Under the pieces are notes generated by a model, which saw only the letters and a list, made by a program, of their open reading frames with translations, searched no databases and had not been told where the DNA came from. The position numbers and the translations under genes were made by a program. Of a stretch of 64,000 nucleotides of DNA, positions 12,612 to 19,825 are shown in pieces. The stretch's first letter is position 1. The number at the start of each line of letters is the position of its first letter. The DNA comes from Acutalibacteraceae bacterium (GTDB lineage Bacteria; Bacillota; Clostridia; Oscillospirales; Acutalibacteraceae), in assembly GCA_045630405.1 (NCBI GenBank), contig JAZQTC010000022.1:53673-117672 (forward strand). The letters are read 5' to 3'.

Positions 12612-12654
12612 AAAAAAACGGCTTACACGGGAATAAAACCCACATAAGCCGTTT
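12612..12654 (-). terminator. Intrinsic terminator closing the SCP2/aminotransferase/transketolase operon
   Basis: Minus strand AAACGGCTTA...TAAGCCGTTT followed by a run of Ts. Confidence 0.75.
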
Positions 12655-12668
12655 ATTTTGTTATTCGC

Positions 12669-13475
12669 TTATCTTGCGTAGTCGCCAACCATCAGCATAT
12701 AATTACCGATCTGTGCACCGAATTCGGGTGCACCGTCCATGATAAGCTTGCTGTCCTTTGTGAACTCAAGCATATCTGCGGTACCCATAAGGATGCCCAG
12801 TGCGCTGTCGAGACAGTCAAATCTCATTGTGAAGAAAGGAAGAGCGCGCTTGTAAACGCCTCTGCCTGCCTTTGACTTACCTGCCTTGATGCGGATGTAA
12901 GCAGAAATGTCGGGGTAACCGTCAACTGCCCAGGCATAAACTCGGTCAGGGCTTGTGAGAGTCCATCTGTGAATCTCTTCGTGACCCTGCTTGTTGAGCG
13001 TGCTGATACCGCTTGAAAGCAGGTAGAAATAGCACTTAACAAGGAGTTTTTTATCCTCTTCAGCTTCGGGAGCCTGTGTTGCGGTAAGCATTGAGGACAT
13101 TTTGAGAAGTGTCATCATAAATGCCGCAAAAACTGCAGGCTTCTTTGCAACGCCCTTCATCTTAGGAAGAGTTGAGGGGCCGATTTTTCCTTTGAAGAAT
13201 GCGTTCATCTGCTCAACACTCTTGAACTCAAGCTCGATGTGAGCATTGTCTGCAACCTTATCTGTGTGGCAGAGCCACTCGCCGCTGTTAACAACGTAGT
13301 GAGTTGCAAACTTTCCGTTGGGAGCGTCGGGGTCTTTTGCGCTGACCTGAATAACCGCATGAGCGTGCTCAAATTTCTTTGCAAGCTTGGGGTCATCCAT
13401 AGCAATGGTCTTTACAAGAGGCAGAACAGCACAAAGGAAAATTTTATTGGTAAGAATGTCTTCTCTTGAAGGCAT
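12669..13475 (-). CDS. Hypothetical protein with two SCP2 (sterol carrier protein 2)-like domains
   Basis: ELEFKSVEQMNAFFKG and TMRFDCLDSALGILMGTADMLEFTKDSKLIMDG resemble the SCP2 beta-helix-G...G.l.i.G pattern. Confidence 0.55.
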   Translation of the reverse strand: MPSREDILTNKIFLCAVLPLVKTIAMDDPKLAKKFEHAHAVIQVSAKDPDAPNGKFATHYVVNSGEWLCHTDKVADNAHIELEFKSVEQMNAFFKGKIGPSTLPKMKGVAKKPAVFAAFMMTLLKMSSMLTATQAPEAEEDKKLLVKCYFYLLSSGISTLNKQGHEEIHRWTLTSPDRVYAWAVDGYPDISAYIRIKAGKSKAGRGVYKRALPFFTMRFDCLDSALGILMGTADMLEFTKDSKLIMDGAPEFGAQIGNYMLMVGDYAR

Positions 13476-13626: not shown

Positions 13627-14637
13627 TTATGCTTCGTCATCCCAGTCGTCGTCGAGTTCGAAGTCCTTACCCATAACTTCACGAACAGCGTCAATGATAC
13701 CGTTCTGGTCGATGCCGAGAGTTGACATAATGTCCTCGTGGAGACCGATGGGTGCGAACTTATCCTGAATACCGAGCTGCTTGAATGCGCAACCCTTACC
13801 TGCCTCACCGATAACCTCTGCAACCCCTGAGCCGAGACCGCCGATAACGTTGTGGTCTTCTGCAGTGATGATTCTTCTGGTTTCCATAACAGCCTTTACG
13901 ATAGCTTCCTTATCGATGGGCTTGATTGTGTGCATATTGAGAACTCTTACCTTGAGACCGTCGTTTGTTTCAAGGAACTTTGCAGCCTGATATGCCTGGA
14001 AAACACATGAACCGCAAGCGATGATTGTGATATCTGAACCTTCGTTGATTGTAACAGCCTTACCAACTTCGAAGCCGTAGTCTGTGGTATCGTAAAGAAC
14101 ACGGTCAAAGCCTCTGTTGATACGGATGTAGTAAGGTCCGAAGTTATCGTATGCAGCGTGAACTGCGTTGTAAGTTTCAAGACCGTCTGCAGGGCAGATA
14201 ACTGTCAGGTTGGGGATTGAACGTGCAACTGCCATATCGCAGATAGCGTGGTGAGTTGAACCTGCCTGACCGAATGATGTGCCTGCGTGAGTAGCAATGA
14301 TTTTTGCGTTAACGTTCTGGTAGCAGATGTCTGTGTGAAGCTGGTCAGCACTTCTGAGAGAAGCAAAAACTGAGAATGTTGAGAGGAAAGGCACAAGACC
14401 TGCTCTTGCCATACCTGCAGCCATACCGAACATATTCTGCTCTGCAATACCTACGTTGAAGTATCTGTCGGGGAACTTGTCGCCGAACATACCGATTTTT
14501 GTTGATTTACCAAGGTCAGCTGTGAGAGCAACAACCTCGGGATGCTTTTCGCCAAGCTCGCAAAGAGCCTTACCGTAAATTTCAGCGGTGGAGAAAGCTG
14601 TTGATTCAGTTGCTGTATAGGTTAATCCGCCTGCCAT
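13627..14637 (-). CDS. Split transketolase, C-terminal (pyrimidine-binding + C-domain) subunit, atypical acceptor site
   Basis: TADLGKST, VGIAEQN, THAGTSFGQAGSTHH, YIRINRG, AEDHNVIGGLG. Confidence 0.92.
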   Translation of the reverse strand: MAGGLTYTATESTAFSTAEIYGKALCELGEKHPEVVALTADLGKSTKIGMFGDKFPDRYFNVGIAEQNMFGMAAGMARAGLVPFLSTFSVFASLRSADQLHTDICYQNVNAKIIATHAGTSFGQAGSTHHAICDMAVARSIPNLTVICPADGLETYNAVHAAYDNFGPYYIRINRGFDRVLYDTTDYGFEVGKAVTINEGSDITIIACGSCVFQAYQAAKFLETNDGLKVRVLNMHTIKPIDKEAIVKAVMETRRIITAEDHNVIGGLGSGVAEVIGEAGKGCAFKQLGIQDKFAPIGLHEDIMSTLGIDQNGIIDAVREVMGKDFELDDDWDDEA

Positions 14638-14639
14638 AA

Positions 14640-15509
14640 TCAGATGCCCTCCTTTTCTGCGCGAGCAACGCGTTTTGCATAGTATTTTTCAAGGCTTTCT
14701 TTTGCCTGTTCGTATTTCTCATCGTTGAGAGCGCCGTAGTGCCACTTGTAGTCGCCTTCCATGTAATCAACGCCTGCACCCTTAACTGTGTTAGCGATAA
14801 TCATAACGGGAGCGCCCTTATTTTCAAGAGCAAAATCAATAGCATCTGCAAGTTCGCTGAAGTTGTGGCCGTCAACTTCCTTAACGATGAAGCCGAATGA
14901 ACGCCACTTATCTGCGAAGGGTTCAAGAGCCATAACTTCTTCTGTGGGGCCGTCAATCATGCACTGGTTGCGGTCAACAAATGAAATGAGGTTATCAGCC
15001 TTGAAGTGAGCAGCTGACATTGCTGCTTCCCAGTTTGAACCTTCGTCGCATTCGCCGTCACCGAGGATACAATATGTCTTGTAATCCTTGCCGAGTACCT
15101 TTGCTGCAAGAGCAGTACCGAGAGCGATTGAAAGGCCGTGACCGAGTGAACCTGTTGAAGCGTCAACACCCTTAACCTTGTTTGAGTCAAGGTGGATACC
15201 CATTGTTGAGTTGCTGAGGTTAAACGTCTTGAGCTTTTCCTTATCGTCAAAGCCAACGTGGCAAACAAGGCTTGCAAGAGCAACGCCTGAGTGACCCTTA
15301 CTGAGGATGAAGCGGTCTCTGTCCTCCCACTGGGGGTTTGCAACGTCGTATTTCATGTACTTGTAATAGAGAATGGTGAGCATATCCATAACGCTCATAC
15401 CGCCGCCGATGTGAGCACTGCCTGCCCAGAAAGTTGTGTCAAGGCAAAGCTTACGCAGCTCGTGAGCCTGCTTTTCAAGCTCAAGCCATTCCTGCTTGGT
15501 TAATGCCAT
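14640..15509 (-). CDS. Split transketolase, N-terminal ThDP-binding subunit
   Basis: SAHIGG, RDRFILSKGH, STGSLGHG, GDGECDEG...N ThDP motif, KWHYG. Confidence 0.92.
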   Translation of the reverse strand: MALTKQEWLELEKQAHELRKLCLDTTFWAGSAHIGGGMSVMDMLTILYYKYMKYDVANPQWEDRDRFILSKGHSGVALASLVCHVGFDDKEKLKTFNLSNSTMGIHLDSNKVKGVDASTGSLGHGLSIALGTALAAKVLGKDYKTYCILGDGECDEGSNWEAAMSAAHFKADNLISFVDRNQCMIDGPTEEVMALEPFADKWRSFGFIVKEVDGHNFSELADAIDFALENKGAPVMIIANTVKGAGVDYMEGDYKWHYGALNDEKYEQAKESLEKYYAKRVARAEKEGI

Positions 15510-15566: not shown

Positions 15567-16829
15567 TCAGCCAAGTTCGGGATGATTCTTGCGAAGAGTG
15601 TTGAATGCGTCTTCAGCAACGTCGATTGTGAACTTGATATCTTCATCTGAAAGTGATGCATTGATGAAGTGATTGTGGTGGTTTGTCATATATACGCCTC
15701 TCTTGACGATTTCAGCAATCCACTCCTGATGAAGCATAAGTGAATCGTCATCCTTAAGCATAAGGTAGAAGAGTGCGGGTTCGCCTGTAACGTTAAGGTT
15801 GAAGCCGTTATTTGCAGCAGCAGCCTTGAGACCGTCGCAAAGCATTGTGCCCTTTTCAAGACAAATCCTGGGAAGGTCGATTTCCTTCATCTTGTTGATA
15901 CAAGCAATTGCAGCCGCAAAGGGAACTGCGCTCATCCAGTAGCTGCCTGTGTAAGTAAGACCGCTGATTGCGCCCTTAAGCCATTCCTTACCGCAAAGTG
16001 CTGAAACATTCCAGCCGTTTGCAAGTGCTTTACAGAAGCAGATAAGGTCAGCTTCAATGCCGTAGAAATGGTCTGAACCTGCAAGATCAAGTCTGAAACC
16101 GCAACGAACGTCGTCGATGATAAGAACGATGCCCTTTTCTGTGCAAAGGTTACGTACCTTCTGCCAATAGCCTTCAGCAGGAAGAACGTTATCAAGGAAA
16201 TTGCCGTGCATATAAGGTGTTGAGATAAATGCAGCGATTTCGCCCTCGTTCTCTTCAACAACTTTCTTGAGACCTTCAAAGTCGTTCCAATCAACGTAAA
16301 GGTTGTTTGCAACGTCCTCGGGAAGAACACCGGGATAGTCAATCTTCTGGCACCAGGGAGCAACACCGTGGTAGTAGCCCTTAACGAAGATAATCTTCTT
16401 CTTGTGAGTTGCTGCTCTTGCAGTCATGATAGCAGCAGTTGTTGTGTCACCGCCGTTCTTTGCAAAGAAAGCCCAGTCTGCCGATGCAACGGTGTCAACC
16501 ATAAGCTCTGCAAACTCAATAATCTTTGTTGAAGGTGCGGTAACGCAGTTTTCAATCTTCATCTGCTCCATAACAGCCTTGTCAACGTCGGGGTCATTGT
16601 AACCGAGTACGTTGGGGCCGTATGCGCACATATAGTCGATATATCTGTTTCCGTCAACGTCCCAGAAGTAGCTGCCCTCTGCTCTCTGGCTGAAAAGAGG
16701 ATAAGCTGAAACGGGGATGCAGCAGCCCTCTGCAGGACCCTGATGGCCGTAAAGACCTGAGGGAATAACTTTTGCAGCTCTCTGGAAGAGTTCTGCACTC
16801 TTTGCGTGTGTGTTGATTTTCATGCTCAT
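15567..16829 (-). CDS. Class III PLP aminotransferase, FumI/GSA-aminomutase-like
   Basis: VIPSGLYGH, YIDYMCAYGPNVLGY, ADWAFFAKNGGD, YHG, IIDDVRCGFR, FCKALANG (PLP Lys), TGSYW. Confidence 0.9.
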   Translation of the reverse strand: MSMKINTHAKSAELFQRAAKVIPSGLYGHQGPAEGCCIPVSAYPLFSQRAEGSYFWDVDGNRYIDYMCAYGPNVLGYNDPDVDKAVMEQMKIENCVTAPSTKIIEFAELMVDTVASADWAFFAKNGGDTTTAAIMTARAATHKKKIIFVKGYYHGVAPWCQKIDYPGVLPEDVANNLYVDWNDFEGLKKVVEENEGEIAAFISTPYMHGNFLDNVLPAEGYWQKVRNLCTEKGIVLIIDDVRCGFRLDLAGSDHFYGIEADLICFCKALANGWNVSALCGKEWLKGAISGLTYTGSYWMSAVPFAAAIACINKMKEIDLPRICLEKGTMLCDGLKAAAANNGFNLNVTGEPALFYLMLKDDDSLMLHQEWIAEIVKRGVYMTNHHNHFINASLSDEDIKFTIDVAEDAFNTLRKNHPELG

Positions 16830-16841
16830 TTCTCTTCCTCC

Positions 16842-17600
16842 TTATGCAAGATACAGAGCAACTCTGTCAAGAATTCTGTTAAGGTTGTCAATCATTGAAA
16901 TCATACCCTTCATAACGATATCGCCTGTACCTACGCAGGCAACAGCGTTGACCTTGCCGTCAAAGAGGGCTCTTGCAAGCTCGATGCTTGAGAATTCCAT
17001 GATTGCTCTGGGTGATTCGCTGGGCTTCTTGATTCCGAGAAGTCTGTGGTTTTTGATTCTTACTGTTGTTGAGGTGCAATCCTTGATGCTGATTGAAATA
17101 TCACCGTCAACCATATATTTTGCGGAATGTTTGCCGATTTCATCATTGTTACCGATCTGTGCAATAGCAACAGTAATGGTATTGAGCATAAGCAACGTGC
17201 TGATGCGGAAGAAATCAGGATCTTCAAGGTCGGCAGGATCGGGTCTCATATACTTTGTGAGAAGATCTGTGAGCTTTGTGAAGTCGTTAAGCAGGAACTT
17301 AACGTGGATAAGACCCTTTGAGGGGATGGGTGTTGTTGTTCCGTCGATAAGTCCGTTGAACTTTTCGCAGGAGCTGAAGGGAAGCTTTACGTCGCACTTT
17401 GTGCAACCCTGCTCCATTCTGCACTTGCCGTTTGCAAATGTGATGGTTGCCTTGGGGCCGCCCTTTACGTCAAAGCCGATTGAAATGGGCTTTTTGTTGG
17501 TGAGGATACTGCCTGCCTCGGGAGCCAGCTCGCAGAGGTTTTCAAGAGTACCCAGAACGCCGTAAAGATTGATATACGCCAATGTTTTCTGATCAATCAT
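16842..17600 (-). CDS. Hypothetical protein with two SCP2-like domains
   Basis: ATITFANGKCRMEQG..KCDVKLPFSSCEKFNGLIDG and PRAIMEFSSIELARALFDGKVNAVACVGTGDIVMKG. Confidence 0.6.
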   Translation of the reverse strand: MIDQKTLAYINLYGVLGTLENLCELAPEAGSILTNKKPISIGFDVKGGPKATITFANGKCRMEQGCTKCDVKLPFSSCEKFNGLIDGTTTPIPSKGLIHVKFLLNDFTKLTDLLTKYMRPDPADLEDPDFFRISTLLMLNTITVAIAQIGNNDEIGKHSAKYMVDGDISISIKDCTSTTVRIKNHRLLGIKKPSESPRAIMEFSSIELARALFDGKVNAVACVGTGDIVMKGMISMIDNLNRILDRVALYLA

Positions 17601-17637: not shown

Positions 17638-17666
17638 ATTTTATCAAAATAATTATAACTTGTCAA
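17638..17666 (-). promoter_or_regulatory. Near-consensus sigma-A promoter of the five-gene operon
   Basis: Minus strand TTGACA-17 bp-TAAAAT, followed by AAGGAGG RBS. Confidence 0.75.
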
Positions 17667-18440: not shown

Positions 18441-18574
18441 ACCGAATTACCTCCGTGATTTTCTCCTGCTATTTTAACACACAAAAATAAAAATATCAAC
18501 ACACAAAAAAGTGTTGCCTATTTAATGTATATGTGTTATTATTTAGTGTGTATTGTAAAATGGAGGATTGTTTT

Positions 18575-19825
18575 ATGGAATACATAATTACTGCGATGCT
18601 TGCGGCGGTGATTATCCTTCTTGTGATTGTCATCGCAAGACAGGGCAAAAATAAAAACGACTTGACCGACAGAAAAATAGATTCATTATCCGAAAAAACA
18701 GCGGAGCTTTCACGTGCTCTCGGTGCGGAATTCGAGCGCAGCCGCCGCGAATCAACCACGGCGCAGCACAATATGAGGATGGAAACCTCTGCCAGACTTG
18801 CAGAAATGAGCGAAAAAATCGAAAGCATCCGAGTCAACAATCTTGAGCAGAATGCAAGGCAGAGCAAAGAGCTTGCCCAAGCCGTTGACAGAATGAGAGA
18901 AAGCAATGAGAAAAAGCTGGAAGAAATGAGAGTCACCGTTGACGAAAAGCTGACCTCAACCCTCACCCAGAGGCTTGACAGCTCATTCAAGACCGTTTCA
19001 GACAGACTTGAAAACGTATATAAATCCCTCGGTGAAATGAAAGAGCTTTCAAACGGTGTTACTGCAAACGTCACAGCCCTCAACAAGGTGCTGACCAACG
19101 TAAAGGCAAGAGGCACCTGGGCAGAAGTACAGCTTGGAGCAATCCTTGACCAGACCTTGCCGGGTATGTACGAAACAAATTTTGTCTGCGTTGACGGCTC
19201 AAAGGACAGAGTTGAATTCGCGGTCAGAATTCCCTCAAACGAAGGCACGGTCACTTATCTTCCCGTTGACTCAAAATTCCCCATGGAAGATTATATCCGC
19301 CTTTGCAATGCGGCTGATTCCGCCGACCCCGAGGCACTTGCCGCCGCCCGTAAGGCACTTGAAGCAAGAATTCTCAGCGAAGCAAAAACCATAACCAAAT
19401 ATATAAACGTACCAAAAACCACTCCGTTTGCTATTATGTACCTTGCAACGGAAGGTCTTTATGCGGAAATCGCATCCTCACGCACGGGCATTGCGGAAAA
19501 AATCCGCAGTGAATACAACGTAATGATTGCAGGACCAACAACAATTACCGCCCTGCTCAATTCACTTTCCCTCGGCTTCAGAGCCGTTGCAATAAATGAA
19601 AAGGCTAACGAGGTAAGGCTTCTGCTTGCCGCCGCAAAAGTGCAGTACGATAAATTCGGTGTTGTGCTTCAGAAAGCAAGGCAGAAGATTGATGAAGCAG
19701 GCAAATCCCTTGACGAAGCAGACAAACGCAATGAAATGATACGCAAAAAGCTTCGTTCCGTTGAAGAAATCGACGGCGCTGCCGCCGATGAAATACTTTT
19801 GTCAGAAGATAATTCAGATACATAA
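18575..19825 (+). CDS. rmuC: DNA recombination protein RmuC
   Basis: N-terminal TM + coiled coil, RGTWAEVQL, VDSKFP, FAIMY; start chosen at ATG 18575 after GGAGG. Confidence 0.92.
   Translation: MEYIITAMLAAVIILLVIVIARQGKNKNDLTDRKIDSLSEKTAELSRALGAEFERSRRESTTAQHNMRMETSARLAEMSEKIESIRVNNLEQNARQSKELAQAVDRMRESNEKKLEEMRVTVDEKLTSTLTQRLDSSFKTVSDRLENVYKSLGEMKELSNGVTANVTALNKVLTNVKARGTWAEVQLGAILDQTLPGMYETNFVCVDGSKDRVEFAVRIPSNEGTVTYLPVDSKFPMEDYIRLCNAADSADPEALAAARKALEARILSEAKTITKYINVPKTTPFAIMYLATEGLYAEIASSRTGIAEKIRSEYNVMIAGPTTITALLNSLSLGFRAVAINEKANEVRLLLAAAKVQYDKFGVVLQKARQKIDEAGKSLDEADKRNEMIRKKLRSVEEIDGAAADEILLSEDNSDT

Follow-up and report, generated by a model that had tools for sequence, protein, structure and literature searches.

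The closest described relative of the protein considered here is FumI, the aminotransferase of Sphingopyxis sp. MTA144, which takes the amino group off C2 of a vicinal amino alcohol with a long chain, with a Km of 1.1 µM; pyruvate is the favoured acceptor and 2-oxoglutarate is not used (PMC3136697). The substrate, hydrolysed fumonisin B1 (HFB1), is a 2-amino-3-ol with a methyl group at C1 (PMC2933618, PMC3136697), and the enzyme belongs to an aerobic proteobacterial cluster for fumonisin catabolism in which FumD, an esterase, is encoded alongside tricarballylate genes (PMC3136697). The validated fumonisin (HFB1) aminotransferases FumI, FumIB, FumTSTA, FumPHTA and FumUPTA share 61–75% mutual identity (PMC9858248). 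In this report we describe a FumI-like aminotransferase, hereafter AT, encoded in 64,000 nt of sequence from an Acutalibacteraceae bacterium (assembly GCA_045630405.1, contig JAZQTC010000022.1, positions 53,673–117,672 of the forward strand); we refer to this whole stretch as the window. The AT gene is found in an operon with genes for two proteins of the SCP2 type and for a split transketolase with a remodelled substrate pocket, and its substrate is most likely a hydrophobic, lipid-like vicinal amino alcohol, as suggested by these neighbours and by analogy with FumI.

The AT open reading frame occupies positions 15567..16829 of the window on the minus strand, begins with ATG and encodes 420 residues, whereas the plus-strand frame over the same interval is not open, being riddled with stops. 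An original prediction made from the letters alone had called the product FumI-like rather than a glutamate-1-semialdehyde 2,1-aminomutase (HemL), quoting seven motifs, each of which we find in the translation: VIPSGLYGH (residues 21–29), YIDYMCAYGPNVLGY (63–77), ADWAFFAKNGGDTT (117–130), YHGVAPW (153–159), DDVRCGFR (239–246), TGSYWMSAVPFAAAI (294–308) and GVYMTNHHNHF (378–388). To that account we add the strand. The seven FumI segments which it had given for comparison agree letter for letter with the sequence of PDB (Protein Data Bank) entry 6hbs in the printed alignment, and the HemL motifs which it had described as absent, seen as IPGGVN-SP and (F/I)DEVMTGFR in all four solved HemL structures, are indeed missing from the window protein. 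AT matches the class III aminotransferase family of Pfam (PF00202) over residues 43–389 with 144.8 bits against a cut-off of 30.5. The Schiff-base lysine, Lys267 (in FCKALANG), and Asp239 (in DDVR), which pairs with the pyridine nitrogen of pyridoxal 5'-phosphate (PLP), are invariant in 53 relatives and coincide in the alignment with GK and DE(V) of the solved HemLs and of FumI.

A phmmer search of all PDB sequences with AT returned FumI (6hbs, 'aminopentol aminotransferase') as the best match, with 295 bits and an E value of 7e-87 over residues 11–415, whereas the best HemL reached only 167 bits. BLASTP identities follow the same order, at 37% to FumI and 30–31% to three HemLs; the sequences used as references for FumI and the HemLs had been reconstructed from HMMER alignments and are missing a few residues at their ends. 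We built a maximum-likelihood tree for 147 sequences with the quick search of IQ-TREE (SH-aLRT support, no bootstrap) and placed its root on the HemLs; in it, AT and FumI fall together in a clade of 97 rows with a support of 98 and a stem branch length of 0.5, and the HemLs lie outside it. Within this clade AT belongs to a subclade of 36 rows (support 100) and FumI to a separate one of 35 rows (support 99); the tree does not resolve the branching order among the subclades. There are 82 positions which are at least 90% conserved and identical in both the window and the FumI subclades, and at 34 of these the HemL consensus has another residue; both subclades lack 11–12 residues of the HemL loop which follows YHG. 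Given these shared positions and the phmmer E value over residues 11–415, the resemblance to FumI is far beyond chance. The AlphaFold2 model of AT (pLDDT, the predicted local distance difference test score, 92.9) has FumI as its top Foldseek match (6hbs/6hbv; template-modelling, TM, scores of 0.94/0.96, r.m.s. difference 1.7 Å, E 5e-43), followed by HemLs with TM scores of 0.85–0.90 and E values of about 1e-33. The comparison by BLASTP and phylogeny that had been proposed as a check on the original prediction thus groups the protein with FumI and not with HemL, and the assignment is borne out at the three levels of sequence score, tree and predicted structure. In its sequence and predicted fold, AT is a FumI-like class III aminotransferase.

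Some annotation pipelines name close homologues of AT as HemL. The highest-scoring NCBIfam models for AT are HemL subfamily models, and several homologues carry the JGI name GSA (glutamate-1-semialdehyde) aminomutase; the two families also have fold and class in common, HemL being the next-best family at about 30% identity and 150–185 bits. The NCBIfam HemL-type and GntE models, however, score 209–230 bits against cut-offs of 398–527 (209.1 against 527 for TIGR00713, the HemL equivalog, and 230.1 against 398 for the best HemL-type model), so far under their cut-offs that none of them applies to AT. In place of IPGGVNSP and DEVMTGFR, AT has VIPSGLYGH and DDVRCGFR. Nor does its own genome (2.65 Mb, 93% complete) suggest a place for such an enzyme. 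No locus anywhere in it passes the HemL cut-off in a profile search, and neither hemA (TIGR01035) nor hemB (PF00490) was found, while the positive controls worked for both, so that this genome offers no source of glutamate-1-semialdehyde and no user of aminolevulinate, that is, no C5 tetrapyrrole pathway. Scores under the cut-offs, no hemA or hemB, missing motifs and post-YHG loop, and a tree and fold search that side with FumI together effectively refute the identification as HemL, which we regard as scarcely credible.

Similarity to FumI does not extend to orthology. AT shares with FumI the superclade, the top sequence and structure matches, the 34 family-specific residues and the post-YHG deletion. 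In contrast, the tree members nearest FumI are proteobacterial proteins with 56–65% identity to FumI, and a profile search for PF00135 carboxylesterases (FumD-type) found none anywhere in the genome from which the window comes. The FumI-clade loci that we fetched lack an SCP2 partner, whereas the AT gene is associated with those for tandem-SCP2 proteins and for a split transketolase. In view of the 37% identity, against 61–75% among the validated enzymes, the separate subclade of 36 rows, the different neighbours and the missing esterase, AT is FumI-like and not a FumI orthologue; the original prediction therefore stands as regards family and not as regards orthology. Its further suggestion that this gut enzyme might deaminate hydrolysed fumonisin is possible but unsupported. 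Were it true, an oxygen-independent gut enzyme of interest for feed detoxification would be at hand, and it is made less likely by the position of AT outside the validated clade. We found no account of the 6hbs active site in the literature which was detailed enough for the mapping of pocket residues onto AT.

The operon consists of five minus-strand genes in the order SCPa, AT, TKN, TKC and SCPb (Table 1). A promoter-like site lies between the terminator of an upstream mtnN-like gene (17742–17719) and the start of SCPa at 17600, and with terminators on both sides the five genes are predicted to be one self-contained, bounded unit. The operon genes include no transporter, binding protein or kinase.

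Table 1. Features of the AT operon, in window coordinates.
Feature	Position	Strand	Description
Promoter-like site	17638..17666	-	TTGACA-17-TAAAAT with TG extension, 11/12; consensus match only
SCPa	16842..17600	-	252 aa, two SCP2-type lipid-binding modules; near-obligate AT partner
AT, aminotransferase	15567..16829	-	420-aa class III (fold-type I) PLP aminotransferase, FumI-like superclade
TKN, transketolase N-terminal half (binds thiamine diphosphate, ThDP)	14640..15509	-	PF00456, 167 bits
TKC, transketolase C-terminal half	13627..14637	-	PF02779 + PF02780; remodelled substrate pocket
SCPb	12669..13475	-	268-aa SCPa paralogue, transketolase-module partner
Intrinsic-terminator-like hairpin	12616..12654	-	16-bp stem, T-run; begins 15 nt past the SCPb stop codon

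SCPa scores 18.4 bits with the Pfam SCP2 model, under the threshold of 21.3, and SCPb has no Pfam match; the two proteins fall into one BLAST cluster and are therefore paralogues. The AlphaFold2 model of SCPa, built from a 50-sequence alignment, has a pLDDT of 94.2 and a predicted TM score (pTM) of 0.90 and shows two helix–sheet–helix repeats. When it was compared with the PDB using Foldseek, the top 46 matches were all SCP2 domains, UbiJ-SCP2 domains or the SCP2-like, alkyl-binding domains of alkylsulfatases (probability 1.0, target TM score, TMt, 0.5–0.72), and SCPa is accordingly modelled as a double SCP2 domain. The established role of UbiJ is to present membrane lipid (quinone intermediates) to soluble enzymes. 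SCPa has the SCP2 fold of the UbiJ/UbiT-type carriers, and we propose a lipid-presenting role for it here; it differs from those carriers in being a tandem double SCP2 protein without significant sequence similarity to them, and each double-SCP2 protein of the window has a single enzyme partner, an aminotransferase in one case and a transketolase in the other.

The transketolase halves are most similar to the split enzyme of Carboxydothermus hydrogenoformans, TKN to its N-terminal chain (6yak, 253 bits) and TKC to 6yaj (268 bits). The two-chain architecture, the ThDP motif and the catalytic histidines are common to both: TKN retains the GDGE..EG ThDP/Mg motif and four histidine positions (saHiGG, skGHsg, giHld and dGHn), all of which line up with those of 6yak and of full-length transketolases, and TKC retains the histidine of THH. 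The difference lies in the substrate pocket of TKC, which has alanine for arginine and GQAG..HH for GEDG..HQ. Ala18 stands where human transketolase has R318 (human numbering was read off the printed alignment), and GQAGSTHH replaces GEDGxxHQ with Ala125 at the position of human D424; we take these to be the positions of E. coli R358, which binds phosphate, and D469, which binds the hydroxyl beside the cleaved bond. With the ThDP motif and the histidines kept and the arginine and aspartate gone, the grip on the two-carbon ketol is retained and that on a phosphorylated, hydroxylated tail is lost. The changes are kept in nearly all operon-linked copies, the exceptions being L036, which retains the arginine, and L047 and L049, which have TP[AT]E. 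The same genome also carries a canonical, housekeeping split transketolase (L085; C35:24280-25197; with ATRDAYG and GEDGASHQ) and a DXS.

We fetched 80 named loci using an alignment of eight family sequences and judged linkage by tblastn with the operon proteins; in high-GC loci, where simple ORF calls give antisense ORFs, tblastn was the sole basis. SCPa is located directly upstream of AT in nearly all loci with an AT of at least 55% identity whose sequence reaches that far. These loci come from Oscillospirales, other Clostridia, Eubacterium coprostanoligenes ATCC 51222, Lutispora, Christensenellaceae, Cellulomonas, Frondihabitans and Microbacterium, and from metagenome-assembled genome (MAG) records labelled Muribaculaceae and Bacteroides. 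Carriers available in culture are Eubacterium coprostanoligenes ATCC 51222, Lutispora saccharofermentans m25, Cellulomonas sp. IC4_254 and Frondihabitans sp. PhB188. The same arrangement is found in six loci with ATs of 40–47% identity, from Syntrophomonadaceae and other Bacillota, from Myxococcota and from an unclassified MAG, and thus extends to the more distant Myxococcota/Syntrophomonadaceae subclade of the tree. The complete five-gene cassette is present in about 27 of the fetched loci and SCPa–AT alone in about 16. SCPb follows TKC in every full cassette and accompanies TKN–TKC even where these are unlinked from AT: among 14 genomes with SCPa–AT only, which were searched whole, four have an unlinked TKN–TKC–SCPb module in which the variant pocket is retained. 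Such unlinked modules and the SCPa–AT-only loci indicate that the operon combines two modules, and that in both of them a soluble enzyme is accompanied by a double-SCP2 protein of its own. Downstream of SCPa–AT-only loci lie heterogeneous housekeeping genes, so nothing takes the place of the transketolase there. FumI-like ATs with a linked split transketolase are found in three separate subclades of the tree, and several cassettes are flanked by TetR genes.

In our view, the reading which best accommodates these observations is that the operon deaminates a lipid-like 2-amino-1,3-diol and then cleaves the product to a fatty aldehyde by thiamine-dependent chemistry, a general scheme towards which we lean by a narrow margin of confidence. 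In this scheme SCPa would extract the lipid from a membrane or micelle and pass it to the soluble AT, in the manner of UbiJ-type SCP2 proteins. AT would then move the C2 amino group onto a keto acid, presumably pyruvate as in FumI, leaving a long-chain 1,3-dihydroxy-2-ketone, which is formally a ketose with an alkyl tail. The specialized split transketolase, together with SCPb, would cut the C2–C3 bond to give a fatty aldehyde, the two-carbon glycolaldehyde unit being transferred. Organisms with SCPa–AT only would halt at the ketone, as FumI does in the detoxification of HFB1. That the substrates are specifically sphingoid bases, with sphinganine, sphingosine and phytosphingosine as candidates, we put forward more tentatively and at somewhat less than even confidence. 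In a gut, such bases are the natural substrates which first suggest themselves.

A lipid substrate is supported by the double-SCP2 partner, by the wide linkage of SCPa with AT and by the operon having neither transporter nor kinase. The long-chain 2-amino alcohol of the original prediction finds its support in gene context only, namely in the near-obligate tandem-SCP2 partner and in a transketolase that has lost the residues for binding phosphate and hydroxyl. A ketol intermediate is supported by the linkage of split transketolases to FumI-like ATs in several subclades, by the retained ThDP motif and donor-holding histidines, by the lost arginine and aspartate, and by the canonical paralogue in the same genome. 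The catabolic direction is supported by the activity of FumI, which deaminates a 2-amino-3-ol lipid, and by the TonB, TetR, aldehyde dehydrogenase and aldolase contexts of relatives. Sphingosine-1-phosphate lyase also cuts the C2–C3 bond of a sphingoid base and releases a long-chain aldehyde, and if our reading is true the two routes would have this cut and this product in common. They would differ in chemistry, since the window scheme proceeds by deamination and ThDP-dependent ketol cleavage, with no phosphorylation, no PLP-dependent retro-aldol step and no sequence relationship to the lyase.

Several points weigh against this proposal. The substrate assignment draws entirely on neighbouring genes and on one characterized relative at 37% identity. 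Sterols, quinones and alkyl sulfates are further ligands of SCP2 domains, and a lipid is therefore not necessarily a sphingoid. The remaining ten of the 14 SCPa–AT-only genomes searched whole have canonical transketolases only; with the variant enzyme missing in about ten of 14, cleavage is not obligatory. The operon genes include no aldehyde dehydrogenase or reductase for the fatty aldehyde. The module is rare, its gene being found within its own order in nine of 301 genomes and seven of 153 genera. Finally, transketolase and aminotransferase reactions are reversible, and engineered transketolase–transaminase cascades yield 2-amino-1,3-diols, so that a synthetic direction is possible.

In that direction the transketolase would add a two-carbon ketol to a fatty aldehyde and AT would aminate the resulting 1,3-dihydroxy-2-ketone to a sphingoid-type base. 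Besides the reversibility of both reactions, the near-consensus promoter-like site without a regulator in the window operon and the missing aldehyde-oxidizing gene agree with synthesis, and SCP2 carriers would be equally suited to a fatty aldehyde substrate. A two-step synthesis makes poor sense, on the other hand, for the many genomes which retain SCPa–AT without the transketolase, and the cassette provides neither an acyl-ACP/CoA reductase to supply the aldehyde nor an N-acyltransferase to use the base. The TetR, TonB receptor and aldehyde dehydrogenase contexts of relatives indicate uptake and breakdown, the distribution is patchy and apparently the result of horizontal transfer, and FumI, the sole characterized relative, is catabolic (PMC3136697). 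We consider the synthetic direction decidedly unlikely.

The nature of the substrate leaves room for two further readings. Since the FumI substrate is itself a 2-amino-3-ol with a C1 methyl group (PMC2933618, PMC3136697), AT may act on a different hydrophobic amine, one that has a hydroxyl or ketone beside the amino group but is not a sphingoid base, such as a 1-deoxy lipid (for example the HFB1 or AAL-toxin backbones), an aminated derivative of a sterol or bile acid, or a polyketide amino alcohol. Sterols and other lipids are bound by SCP2 domains, the cassette is found in the sterol-transforming species Eubacterium coprostanoligenes, and an old yellow enzyme (OYE)-type enoate reductase, a vicinal oxygen chelate (VOC) protein or a short-chain dehydrogenase/reductase (SDR) adjoins some cassettes. 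We nevertheless regard this as unlikely: the transketolase histidines for the C1 hydroxyl of the donor are kept, which suits a 1-hydroxy-2-ketone better than a methyl ketone, and for the fumonisin-type substrates in particular there is neither a FumD-type esterase in this genome to release HFB1 from fumonisin nor a place for AT among the validated transaminases. A small hydrophilic amino-polyol or amino sugar (serinol, a 2-amino-2-deoxy-alditol or aminobutanetriol) would make chemical sense of an aminotransferase beside a transketolase, because the product would be a ketose, the ordinary transketolase donor, and in the Caulobacter relatives a PfkB kinase of the sugar type occurs together with a class II aldolase. 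Such a substrate is nonetheless highly improbable, as two dedicated tandem-SCP2 proteins accompany the enzymes, the operon is without transporter, binding protein or kinase, the phosphate-binding arginine and hydroxyl-binding aspartate have been lost, and a canonical transketolase is encoded elsewhere in the same genome.

Thousands of close homologues from gut, rumen and sediment metagenomes are generically named or mislabelled as HemL, and the placement with FumI corrects these labels. Sphingoid bases, which derive from the diet, the host epithelium and Bacteroides, are signalling lipids with antimicrobial activity towards Gram-positive bacteria. If the preferred reading of sphingoid-base deamination is true, the operon would represent a new bacterial sink for them, and the widespread tandem-SCP2 family would gain its first function. 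It would also be a natural adaptation of transketolase to lipid ketols, which enzyme engineers have attempted at the corresponding aspartate position. Full-text literature searches found no SCP2–aminotransferase–transketolase pathway, no bacterial transaminative breakdown of sphingoid bases, and no route for their removal which combines a PLP transaminase with a transketolase. Were the synthetic direction true instead, gut Clostridia and some Actinobacteria would gain a route to sphingoid-type bases without serine palmitoyltransferase.

The fetched loci provide several further observations. Those of an Actinomycetales MAG, Cellulomonas, Frondihabitans and Microbacterium (L015, L020, L022 and L032) have SCPa–AT with ATs 64–69% identical to that of the window; in the tree these actinobacterial ATs are nested among sequences from Oscillospirales and other Bacillota, which suggests horizontal transfer between phyla. 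The ATs of two records titled uncultured Bacteroides sp. and Muribaculaceae (L034 and L041) cluster with those of the Eubacterium coprostanoligenes type with branch lengths of 0.03–0.2, and their placement in Bacteroidota could reflect binning contamination or very recent transfer. In three loci from Lutispora and Clostridiaceae (L026, 11293–14762; L029; L048) the cassette is followed by genes for a VOC/glyoxalase-family protein, a 756-residue oxidoreductase and a TetR regulator. The 756-residue protein is an OYE-type FMN and FAD/NAD oxidoreductase of the enoate or 2,4-dienoyl-CoA reductase type, and the additional genes hint that an unsaturated lipid product may be processed further.

Two groups of loci concern the FumI subclade itself. 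In more distant actinobacterial members, from an Actinomycetota MAG, Streptomyces and Pseudonocardia (L076, L077 and L083), a split transketolase lies directly upstream of a FumI-subclade AT; tblastn found no SCP2 gene at these loci, and the pocket variant G[YF]YGTSHH replaces GEDGxxHQ in their transketolases. In a Brevundimonas MAG (L054, 1064–9882) and in L058 and L059 (Caulobacter vibrioides OR37) the FumI-subclade AT is part of a conserved Caulobacteraceae cluster with the order TonB-dependent receptor, major facilitator superfamily (MFS) transporter, TetR, aldehyde dehydrogenase, AT, PfkB kinase and class II aldolase. This cluster looks like an uncharacterized pathway for the breakdown of an amino-polyol or of a lipid resembling phytosphingosine, with kinase and aldolase in place of the transketolase; as predicted from gene content, it is an alternative way of cutting a keto-polyol beside the carbonyl, followed by oxidation of the aldehyde.

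We also considered whether SCPa and AT might occur as a fusion, as there are AT-domain proteins of 560–1026 residues with an extension of 260–450 residues before the AT domain. None of these matches the hidden Markov model (HMM) of the SCP2 partner, and the extensions inspected are cytidylyltransferase-like, so the idea was rejected. Within the window, the ORFs of 251 and 252 residues at 16810–17565 (plus strand) and 18496–19254 (minus strand), which run opposite to SCPa and to the gene for RmuC, respectively, are antisense frames of low complexity and not genes. Elsewhere in the same genome (L001, G000:C43:82171-83484) there is a second, orphan HemL-like class III aminotransferase of 492 residues, which scores 268 bits against the hemL model cut-off of 527. 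It is followed by a 407-residue protein with a class II aldolase/epimerase domain, and the two could form another pair of amine-to-ketol enzyme and C–C lyase.

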